Positions 41,990 to 43,652 of a stretch of DNA of 64,000 bases are shown here, piece after piece. Under the pieces are notes generated by a model. It had not been told where the DNA came from. It did no database searches and was given only the letters and a program-made list of their open reading frames with translations. Source of the stretch: a virus; the IMG/VR virus record IMGVR_UViG_3300020057_000027, positions 32,001 to 96,000 of that record; one strand, 5' to 3'. A program made the position numbers and the translations under genes. Position 1 is the stretch's first letter; every line of letters begins with the position of its first letter.

Positions 41990-42079
41990 ATGATAGAAAT
42001 TCGTTCTAACCTATTACCGCTCCCACTCTTATATCCCTCGCGGGATTATAAAACACTCTTGCGTCCATTGGACGCATAA
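41990..42079 (+). CDS. Leu/Pro/Tyr-rich leader peptide MIEIRSNLLPLPLLYPSRDYKTLLRPLDA
   Basis: Leaderless ORF; 14 of 29 codons are L/P/Y, matching the downstream tRNAs. Confidence 0.7.
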   Translation: MIEIRSNLLPLPLLYPSRDYKTLLRPLDA

Positions 42080-42122
42080 TCACACATTCAAATATTAGTA
42101 GAAGAAAAGATAATTAAATTAT

Positions 42123-42199
42123 CTAGGTGTAGCAAAGTTTGGTATTGCGCCCGCTTTGGGAGCGGGAGGCCGCAGGTTCAAATCCTGCCACCTAGACCA
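42123..42199 (+). tRNA. tRNA-Pro(UGG)
   Basis: Cloverleaf, TTTGGGA loop, CCA. Confidence 0.93.
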
Positions 42200-42202
42200 T
42201 AT

Positions 42203-42286
42203 GGGAGTTAAGACATACGGACTTGTCGGCTGTCTGTAAAACAGTTGTAGAAATGCAAGGGGGTTCGATTCCCTCAACTCCCACCA
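42203..42286 (+). tRNA. tRNA-Tyr(GUA)
   Basis: CTGTAAA loop, long variable arm, CCA. Confidence 0.9.
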
Positions 42287-42289
42287 TAT

Positions 42290-42374
42290 ACTCTTGTGGC
42301 GGAACTGGCATACGCGGCAGACTTAAACCCTGTTGCCTTCGGGATTGAGGGTTCGACTCCCTCCAAGAGTACCA
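42290..42374 (+). tRNA. tRNA-Leu(UAA)
   Basis: CTTAAAC loop, long variable arm, CCA. Confidence 0.88.
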
Positions 42375-42382
42375 TTTTTTAT

Positions 42383-42459
42383 AGTCAAGTGATGGAATTG
42401 GAATACATACTTGTCTCAAACACAAGGTTTTAAGGGTTCGACTCCCTTCTTGACTACCA
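42383..42459 (+). tRNA. tRNA-Leu(CAA) with short variable loop
   Basis: CTCAAAC loop, A73, CCA. Confidence 0.82.
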
Positions 42460-42510
42460 TTTTTAAAAATAATTTATTGACAAATGCCTTCCCGGCATAT
42501 ATACTACCAC

Positions 42511-42650
42511 AAGTTGAATGAGTTTTGGGATTTTATGTCCCATTTTCTTTTGTGGATTGTAAGCTCTACTACTACCGTGGCGGGTGGTCTTTAGGTAGGC
42601 CTAAAACGAAGACTTTCGGGTTCACTGTAGTGGAGCTTAGAGTTTACAAA
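42511..42650 (+). ncRNA. Candidate rod-like ncRNA
   Basis: Own promoter TTGACA(42477)-17-TATACT; 13-bp stem 42560-42572/42627-42639. Confidence 0.55.
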
Positions 42651-42757
42651 TTTGCAAAATAAAGATTGACAAACGTAGTGAACGTGTGTTATTCTATATA
42701 AAGATAGTCTGATGAAAGGGAAAATCAACTAGGGATAACTTCAACTATCCCATCGGG

Positions 42758-42840
42758 CACACCTGATGAGTCCATAAGGACGAAACAGGGGAGTTAATAG
42801 AGCGTAATAATCGGATCGATTGCTCCTCCCCTGTCGTGTG
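42758..42840 (+). ncRNA. Type I hammerhead ribozyme
   Basis: CACAC-CTGATGA-GTCC ATAA GGAC-GAAA-CAGGGGAG...CTCCCCTG-TC^GTGTG; predicted cleavage after C42835. Confidence 0.9.
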
Positions 42841-43064
42841 ATGAAGGACTTAAGGCCTTAAACCTTATCATCGTTCTTCGGTTGGCAAGTTTCGTCTAAA
42901 CATTTATTGTTGCGCTTTCAGTGACAGCTTAGATTAAGGACGAGTATTAGATGGAATCGCGGGTATTTCCACGCCGAGCATTGCGAAAGCGTACATGTGA
43001 ACACTACCGTATAGTTTGCCTAGTTCTGTAAGATTGATTGGGCTTTTTTGTTTTTAGATATTGT

Positions 43065-43106
43065 ATGTTAAACGGACTGGAACGATTAGAGACTGAGAGA
43101 GCGTAA
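43065..43106 (+). CDS. Candidate Glu-rich leader peptide MLNGLERLETERA
   Basis: Mini-ORF ending 7 nt before tRNA-Glu; 3 of 13 codons Glu. Confidence 0.35.
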   Translation: MLNGLERLETERA

Positions 43107-43113
43107 TTTTTAC

Positions 43114-43188
43114 GTTCCCGTCTTCTAACGGCTAGGAAGTCTGACTTTCAATCAGATAACGAGGGTTCGATTCCCTCCGGGAACACCA
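43114..43188 (+). tRNA. tRNA-Glu(UUC)
   Basis: CTTTCAA loop, cloverleaf, CCA. Confidence 0.92.
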
Positions 43189-43197
43189 AAGGTAATT

Positions 43198-43377
43198 ATG
43201 ACTGATCAAAAATTTGCTGATTTATCTACAGAAGATTTAGAATTAGCTATTGATATGTTTGAACAAACACAGTTAAGAACGAAAGATGTAATTCTTCAAA
43301 ATCAAATTGATGAATTAAAGAAAGAGTTAGACAATAGAAAAAGACCTTTACTTGAAAAGGTTTTACTGAAGGGATAA
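43198..43377 (+). CDS. Small hypothetical protein (59 aa, MTDQKFADL...)
   Basis: AAGGT RBS; read manually. Confidence 0.6.
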   Translation: MTDQKFADLSTEDLELAIDMFEQTQLRTKDVILQNQIDELKKELDNRKRPLLEKVLLKG

Positions 43378-43422
43378 TTATATGACTACAGATATTACAG
43401 ACGATAGAAGCCACGATATTAT

Positions 43423-43497
43423 GGGCTTATGGTCTAATGGTCATGACGCTACTCTGTCTAAGTAGAAGTCCGGGTTCGATTCCCGATAAGCCCGCCA
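43423..43497 (+). tRNA. tRNA-Asp(GUC)
   Basis: CTGTCTA loop, G73, CCA. Confidence 0.9.
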
Positions 43498-43517
43498 CAA
43501 ATTTGCTAAATAGTTTT

Positions 43518-43589
43518 ATGATTAAGTTTCTTTCAATCACGTCCTCATCCACCTGTACATCTACAGGGTCAACAGGCTGTTGCCTGTAA
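43518..43589 (+). CDS. Ser/Thr/Cys/Gly-rich leader peptide MIKFLSITSSSTCTSTGSTGCCL
   Basis: Follows CTAAATA; 15 consecutive S/T/C/G codons matching the downstream tRNAs. Confidence 0.72.
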   Translation: MIKFLSITSSSTCTSTGSTGCCL

Positions 43590-43652
43590 TTCAATTCGCC
43601 CTAACGGGCACATCATCACAAATAAGGGTAGAAGTTTTTCAAATCGCAAAAT

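Follow-up and report, generated by a model that had tools for sequence, protein, structure and literature searches.

Why should two separate clusters of transfer RNA (tRNA) genes in one phage genome be preceded by leaders that end in the same short sequence? The question is raised by a stretch of 64,000 nucleotides (nt), hereafter the window, which comprises bases 32001-96000 of one 164,106-bp contig with 35% G+C and holds a transfer-messenger RNA (tmRNA) gene, two tRNA clusters (42123-42459 and 43653-44053), tRNA-Glu, tRNA-Asp and intervening non-coding RNA units. The contig is that of a T4-like phage, because gp32, gp59, a gp33-type late co-activator and T4 baseplate genes occur in the loci of its relatives, ATAAATA late-type boxes are strand-biased (33 on the plus strand vs. 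4 on the minus strand), and perfect sigma-70 promoters occur. The shared sequence, here called the core, is the 14-nt AATA-W-NN-GTAGAAG. It is very probably a selectively kept cis-signal that closes both leaders and is recognized by a trans-acting partner.

The original prediction was of a motif in two halves, CAT-M-ATCACA and AAATA-N3-GTAGAAG, standing at an identical distance upstream of the first tRNA of both clusters. In the window itself this description is accurate: leader 1 has CAT-A-ATCACA at 42075-42084 and AAATA-TTA-GTAGAAG at 42090-42104 before tRNA-Pro, which starts at 42123, leader 2 has CAT-C-ATCACA at 43611-43620 and AAATA-AGG-GTAGAAG at 43620-43634 before tRNA-Gly(tcc), which starts at 43653, and in both clusters 18 nt separate GTAGAAG from the first tRNA. 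The core copies, both recovered by the window, genome and matrix scans and by the alignment of relatives, and their spacers are the following.

42091-42104, plus strand: core copy 1, AATA-T-TA-GTAGAAG.
42105-42122, plus strand: A/T-rich spacer of 18 nt before tRNA-Pro.
43621-43634, plus strand: core copy 2, AATA-A-GG-GTAGAAG.
43635-43652, plus strand: spacer of 18 nt before tRNA-Gly(tcc).

From shuffles, 0.01 occurrences of AAATA-N3-GTAGAAG are expected in the window, which has two, and a search of either strand of the whole genome (164,106 bp) returned only the two leader sites. A weight matrix built from seven copies of the core (see below) scores the window sites at 22 and 25.5 bits and the next-best site of the genome at 17. 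When leader 1 is compared with leader 2, the best 16-nt window holds 13 matches, for which the P value from shuffling is 0.0004 if the offset from the tRNA has to be equal and 0.06 if it is left free. For the CAT-M-ATCACA half, two occurrences were found vs. 0.36 expected, and two were reached in 6 of 100 shuffles. The window by itself is, for the motif, suggestive and not decisive; it is the relatives that decide. GTAGAAG is also present inside tRNA-Asp (43462-43468), where it runs from the 3' strand of the anticodon stem into the start of the variable loop; this is probably a matter of chance, and the heptamer is not conserved in the tRNA-Asp of the relative L100.

No closely related phage was found among those deposited: a DNA search of the phage collection gave tRNA-gene matches only, and the leaders were without relatives there. 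Near-identical strains (98.9-100%) have both motif copies unchanged and are, therefore, uninformative. Relatives with the same island were found as short Logan contigs, reached via homologues of two flanking open reading frames (ORFs). Two of these, L100 (from SRR28031027) and L101 (SRR23967299), have both leaders and a third, L111 (SRR14271336), has leader 2 only; the neighboring proteins of these metagenomic relatives are 56-68% identical to those of the window phage. The most distant relative is G001, a phage of 167.8 kb (loci L080 and L081) with a flanking protein that is ~60% identical. The homologous leaders of the three Logan contigs contribute five further core copies (L100:1559-1572 and 3024-3037; L101:1224-1237 and 2798-2811; L111:1450-1463), which brings the total to seven copies in four phage lineages.

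Twelve of the 14 core columns are invariant in leader 1 (three phages) and likewise 12 of the 14 in leader 2 (four phages), in comparison sets of only 3 to 4 sequences per family, whereas the remaining columns between stop codon and tRNA are only 20% and 27% invariant and carry many indels. Sites of at least 20 bits are confined to the leaders in the loci of the relatives as well. Those core positions that do vary group by leader, leader 1 with leader 1 and leader 2 with leader 2, and not by phage; selection has, therefore, held the two paralogous copies independently, and they have not been homogenized by copying between the leaders. TTTTT directly follows the core in all four leader-2 copies. 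The proposal that the motif is a common functional site of both leaders is, on this comparison, borne out, whichever of the four suggested roles (binding, pause, antitermination or processing) it may have. The absence from homologous leaders that would have counted against the motif was seen in G001 only; the leaders of L100, L101 and L111 carry it.

Two other elements of the original prediction did not survive the comparison. The distance between GTAGAAG and the first tRNA (leader 1/leader 2), 18/18 nt in the window, is 12/15 nt in L100 and 10/14 nt in L101, and for leader 2 of L111 it is 15 nt. Because the distances in the relatives vary (the range being 10-18 nt), the equal spacing in the window is a coincidence and not a feature of the motif. 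The CAT-M-ATCACA half has to be given up as a part of the motif, since the relatives have in its place no more than a G-free A/C/T tract that is loosely conserved, contains repeats of ATCA and varies in its spacing to the core.

Outside these phages, the pattern ATCACA-gap-AATA-N3-GTAGAAG matched 78 loci in IMG/VR and the pattern AATA-W-NN-GTAGAAG-TTTTT matched 75, with a same-strand tRNA within 300-400 nt at none of them. These counts, therefore, look like chance and the motif does not seem to be widespread. Patterns representing the leader hairpins, searched for in IMG/VR and in the metagenomes of the Joint Genome Institute, recovered G001 and unrelated coding matches only. A candidate partner of the motif is a coiled-coil ORF of 59 amino acids (43198-43377), located between tRNA-Glu and tRNA-Asp, which is found at 56-64% identity in all motif-bearing relatives; the motif-less G001 has an unrelated ORF of 55 amino acids in its place. 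This co-occurrence may reflect relatedness only.

If the core is a signal, in what kind of leader is it embedded? Both leaders contain leaderless mini-ORFs whose peptides are made up of the amino acids served by the tRNAs downstream, an arrangement conserved in L100, L101, L111 and G001. The leaders had been described as otherwise dissimilar, which holds only in part, as an initial ATGAT, a short ORF and a composition rich in C and poor in G are common to both. The changes in the codon run of leader 1 among four phages are mostly synonymous third-position changes, which indicates that the leader mini-ORFs are translated. The only features that follow the ORF are a GC-rich hairpin (in 5 of the 7 leaders), the stem of which is kept as its sequence changes, a G-free tract and the 14-mer; in all seven copies, the sequence immediately 5' of the core contains no or almost no G. 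The features of leader 1 and its tRNA cluster are these.

41955-41983, plus strand: sigma-70-type promoter, TTGACA, 17-nt spacer and TATAAT, with 12 of 12 matches.
41990-42079, plus strand: leader-1 mini-ORF of 29 codons with the Leu/Pro/Tyr run LLPLPLLYP.
42033-42046, plus strand: leader-1 hairpin 1, ATCCC / GGGAT, kept in all four phages.
42060-42076, plus strand: leader-1 hairpin 2, GC-rich, with a stem that is retained and a sequence that is different in every relative.
42075-42090, plus strand: G-poor A/C/T tract with ATCA repeats (the CAT-A-ATCACA half), at variable spacing to the core.
42123-42459, plus strand: tRNA cluster 1, consisting of Pro(tgg), Tyr(gta), Leu(taa) and Leu(caa).

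The TATAAT of leader 1 ends 6 nt upstream of the ATG, from which a transcript beginning on or beside the ATG at 41990 is expected. The window phage has suffered a deletion of 1 nt, which shortened the CCCC run of hairpin 1 by one C (42035-42046; cf. L100:1500-1520 and L081:5455-5470). Its leader-1 ORF, therefore, misses the GGA-TAA stop common to all relatives and extends by 10 codons, to end at 42077-42079, i.e., within CAT-A-ATCACA. Leader 2 and its cluster are made up as follows.

43507-43512, plus strand: late-promoter-like box TAAATA, 5 nt upstream of the leader-2 ATG.
43518-43589, plus strand: leader-2 mini-ORF of 23 codons, rich in Ser/Thr/Gly/Cys, with two internal hairpins.
43598-43609, plus strand: leader-2 post-ORF hairpin, GCCC TAAC GGGC.
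43611-43620, plus strand: G-free tract CAT-C-ATCACA, which abuts the core.
43653-44053, plus strand: tRNA cluster 2, consisting of Gly(tcc), Gly(gcc), Thr(tgt), a tRNA recognized by Rfam only (43891-43963; GCA loop, so Cys) and Ser(tga).

At the position of the leader-2 box the full TATAAATA is present in L101, L111 and G001. The leader-2 peptide consists almost wholly of Ser, Thr, Gly and Cys. Its post-ORF hairpin is replaced by a different hairpin in L111 and has no counterpart in L100 and L101.

No Rfam family covers 41990-42122 or 43518-43652, either at the gathering score or at E values up to 5. A long-range helix between the core and the 5' end of the leader ORF, which folding suggested for leader 2, is no better than with shuffled 5' regions in any of the seven leaders (z +0.2 to +1.95). 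That the core or the post-ORF leader is antisense to a downstream tRNA can be rejected as a general property, as L100, L111 and all leader-1 copies do not stand out; the exceptions are the leader-2 motifs of the window phage and L101, which could pair with the anticodon arm of tRNA-Thr (duplex z -3.7 and -3.3). A complement of GTAGAAG, with G-U pairs allowed, was sought in the tRNA island and the tmRNA, and no homologous site common to the window phage, L100 and L101 was found. The TAG within the core does not serve as a stop signal for the leader ORF, since it falls in all three frames relative to that ORF. As no helix or complement is supported, the core looks like a site that is read as sequence, apparently with single-stranded RNA or non-template DNA as the substrate and not within a helix.

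The match with tRNA-Thr involves, in the window phage and L101, ATCATCAC plus AAGGG of leader 2 (43611-43628), which are complementary to both anticodon-stem strands of tRNA-Thr(tgt) (43814-43887). L100 has another complement of 8 nt, shifted by 3 nt, and L111, the tRNA-Thr of which differs there, has none.

A consensus scan of the plus strand found no intrinsic terminator (hairpin plus T-run) in either leader and did find canonical ones nearby in the phage; the hairpins in the leaders are not followed by U-runs, and the TTTTT after the leader-2 core has no stem adjacent to it. Among all 80-nt windows of the genome, the leaders rank at the 99.93 and 99.61 percentile for excess of C over G, with best windows of C27/G10 (leader 1) and C25/G12 (leader 2), and the core lies directly 3' of this C-rich window, at 102-121 nt from the leader AUG. 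The interpretation that we prefer, tentatively and with the larger share of the probability lying elsewhere, is that the two leaders are terminator-less, factor-dependent (Rho-type) leader-peptide attenuators, in which the core would be the pause or release point. It is suggested by the missing intrinsic terminator, the extreme C-over-G skew and the position of the core directly 3' of the skewed stretch, and from these we infer the involvement of Rho, the pausing and the direction of control. The C-rich, G-poor RNA of the mini-ORF would be the loading site of Rho. If the tRNAs are scarce, the ribosome would stall on the cognate codons and mask the RNA, and the polymerase would read on into the tRNAs; if decoding is fast, the ribosome would depart and Rho could load and catch the polymerase at the core, which would serve, 10-18 nt ahead of the first tRNA, as a sequence-specific signal for pausing or release. 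Leader ORFs gate the access of Rho in the tna, mgtA and corA leaders.

Several observations weigh against this Rho-type reading. G001 keeps both leaders and their ORFs while GTAGAAG is missing from both, and the core must, therefore, be dispensable or replaceable for leader function; the remnants in G001 are confined to the AAATA block, as ATTC-AAATA in leader 1 and TT-AAATA-GGAG-TTTT in leader 2. A 14-nt invariant sequence is, to our knowledge, not a requirement of Rho-dependent terminators, and in no register tried by eye does the core show the G at -10, Y at -1 and G at +1 of the consensus elemental pause. In folds of leader plus tRNA the pairing probability of the core is 0.16-0.74 and thus not uniformly low. 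The C-over-G skew is confounded by the codons of the mini-ORFs, those for Pro, Leu, Ser and Thr being C-rich, and stable hairpins interrupt the C-rich leader RNA.

Nearly as likely as the Rho-type reading, and by itself doubtful, is a role of the core as a binding or cleavage site in the RNA. A sequence-specific protein or endoribonuclease of phage or host would recognize AAUA-W-NN-GUAGAAG at the end of the leader, which is unstructured and poor in G, and the leader messenger RNA (mRNA) would be cut from the tRNA precursor, or stability or maturation controlled. A non-palindromic 14-mer with two invariant blocks around three free positions is typical of single-strand recognition, and both the G-free flank and the lack of a conserved pairing partner agree with it. 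A binding site would tolerate a variable distance to the tRNA, and presence in both leaders of the window phage, L100 and L101 and in neither of G001 is what a lineage-specific trans-acting factor would give. The A/U-rich sequence after every copy of the core fits the loose preference of ribonuclease (RNase) E, but RNase E-type sites are not known to be so conserved, and an extra site would be unneeded since RNase P removes any 5' leader unaided. A RegB site was rejected, as the phage has no RegB homologue (no match to PF10715) and the core is without GGAG, which occurs at the equivalent place only in leader 2 of G001. Pfam and PHROGs searches of the genes neighboring the tRNA island revealed no RNA-binding or nuclease family, and folding does not leave the core clearly unpaired in all copies.

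It is improbable that, instead, an elongation or antitermination factor loads at the core, as at ops (RfaH) or boxA (NusB/NusE), and protects the polymerase from Rho while the untranslated tRNA cluster is transcribed. The core does share with these that it is a short invariant leader signal (an invariant sequence of 12-14 nt), apparently read single-stranded and at a variable distance from the gene; it also lies in the promoter-distal leader of an untranslated operon and follows a GC hairpin in 5 of 7 cases, an order like that of boxB and boxA in rRNA leaders. The ops core is GGCGGTAG..TG and overlaps with the GTAG of our motif (GGTAG in 3 of 7 copies). However, GTAG is all that is common to them, with agreement at only 4-5 of 12 positions, and the phage genome has no gene of the NusG family (PF02357), so that an ops/RfaH site was discarded. 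The boxA consensus is pyrimidine-rich (GCTCTTTAACAA-like), whereas the core is purine-rich and bears no resemblance to it on the transcribed strand. Moreover, the tRNA-Glu/Asp unit and two non-coding RNAs of the island are without the motif.

We give similarly little credence to the core as a site in the DNA, i.e., as a secondary promoter from which tRNA transcripts without the leader would start, or as an operator or roadblock bound by a DNA-binding protein of the phage. The variable distance to the tRNA is promoter-like, T4 has a second, tRNA-proximal promoter, and in leader 1 of the window a TTCAAA-16 nt-GATAAT spans the motif and would start transcripts ~2 nt before tRNA-Pro. The core also loosely resembles the start regions of the leaders, where an A/T-rich -10-like box is followed a few nt on by ATGAT-AAG. 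Its AAATA/AATA resembles the 3' half of the T4-type late promoter TATAAATA, true late-type boxes of which are present in this phage upstream of the leader-2 ORF and of the tmRNA. A late promoter (at least TAAATA at ~6 nt before the start) was nevertheless ruled out, because the core lacks the required upstream T-A in every copy, the bases upstream of it being C, G, A, C, C and C before A/G in six copies and T-T in L111. A T before AAATA is found only in L111, where the next base is wrong; the motif thus avoids the late box TAAATA that precedes many phage genes, no gene start follows the core, and GTAGAAG follows none of the 33 ATAAATA boxes. A middle promoter was ruled out as well, since MotA and AsiA genes are lacking (PF09114 and PF09010 unmatched) and the relatives have no conserved -10 box (TA-N3-T) downstream of the core. 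A promoter class should recur at other genes and the weight matrix finds none, and the core is not palindromic. Finally, it is very improbable that the motif is without function, as an undiverged vestige of an ancestral leader common to both or a similarity due to chance, because, even though the similarity within the window has P=0.06 with a free offset, the motif-bearing phages form one clade with only 3 to 4 sequences per leader family and G001 lives without the motif, neutral sequence should be scrambled where neighboring proteins are 56-68% identical, and the same 12 bases are kept independently by two paralogous copies between flanks that are 20-27% invariant and full of indels.

The island contains further features. 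In three phages an ATAAATA late-type box ends 4 nt upstream of position 1 of the tmRNA (window 38725-38748, L100:40-66 and L081:4700-4720); transcription is, therefore, predicted to begin at what is also the 5' end of the mature tmRNA. Two tRNA genes were matched by Rfam (40.6 and 44.3 bits) and missed by ARAGORN: the one at 43891-43963 combines a GCA (Cys) anticodon loop with an unusual T-arm, and the one at 39145-39216 starts 3 nt after the tmRNA and has a CAT anticodon loop. Between the tRNA clusters lies a promoter-bearing structured RNA (42666-43050) with homologues in L100, L101, L102, L103 and L112; within it, 42747-42791 gives a sub-threshold match to the type III hammerhead (24.1 bits vs. 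a gathering score of 48.5). Units of promoter, leader and tRNA cluster behave like cassettes when L102, L103, L112 and L113 are compared with the window: in L102 and L103 the flanking ORF is followed directly by the small RNAs and cluster 1 is absent, and L112 and L113 are without tRNA-Asp, leader 2 and cluster 2. G001 has an insert between tRNA-Asp and leader 2 (L081:8795-9450) with zinc-finger and PD-(D/E)xK-like endonuclease-type ORFs, and its second tRNA region also holds an HNH-type ORF (L080:8527-9072). Elsewhere in the window (25516-28149), the gene of a class II (B12-dependent) ribonucleotide reductase contains an intein with a LAGLIDADG endonuclease domain.

How do these leaders compare with known ones? 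They resemble the trpL, hisL, leuL, pheL, thrL and ilvL attenuators in having a short ORF with the sensed codons directly upstream and hairpins that overlap or follow this ORF. They differ from them in that the targets are tRNAs, the ORFs are leaderless, a terminator hairpin with U-run is lacking and the leader ends in an invariant 14-nt sequence. They also resemble the Rho-dependent tnaC-rut, mgtL/mgtA and corL/corA (Salmonella) leaders, in which translation of an ORF decides on the access to C-rich, G-poor RNA and an intrinsic terminator is absent; mgtL and mgtP also sense Pro codons. A C-rich, G-poor stretch of ~70-80 nt that a ribosome could cover, as in tnaC and mgtL, is present in both of our leaders. 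Those leaders have mRNA targets and no shared invariant motif at the release site, and a role of Rho is only predicted here. Leaderless polycysteine short ORFs of mycobacteria are reported to act as attenuators at the 5' end of a polycistronic transcript (bioRxiv 10.1101/834739). They share with the phage ORFs that they are leaderless and sense the supply of one amino acid or tRNA, and differ in that they control bacterial protein-coding genes and not untranslated phage tRNAs. Full-text searches of the literature recovered no paper in which leader peptides or conserved motifs are described for the leaders of phage tRNA genes.

The usual view of phage tRNA genes is that of constitutive cargo; here, two clusters stand behind translated mini-ORFs that use their own codons. 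It is conceivable, if doubtful, that the 14-mer is the docking site of a dedicated phage or host factor that turns stalling on the leader peptide into expression of the tRNA cluster without an intrinsic terminator. If so, it would represent a new factor-dependent output module for an apparently undescribed class of phage tRNA-supply sensors. The 14-base motif provides a precise handle on how ribosome stalling couples to the output of untranslated genes and a factor that reads it, if there is one, would be a new regulator of the tRNA supply of the infected cell and might bear on the escape from host defenses that cleave tRNAs.

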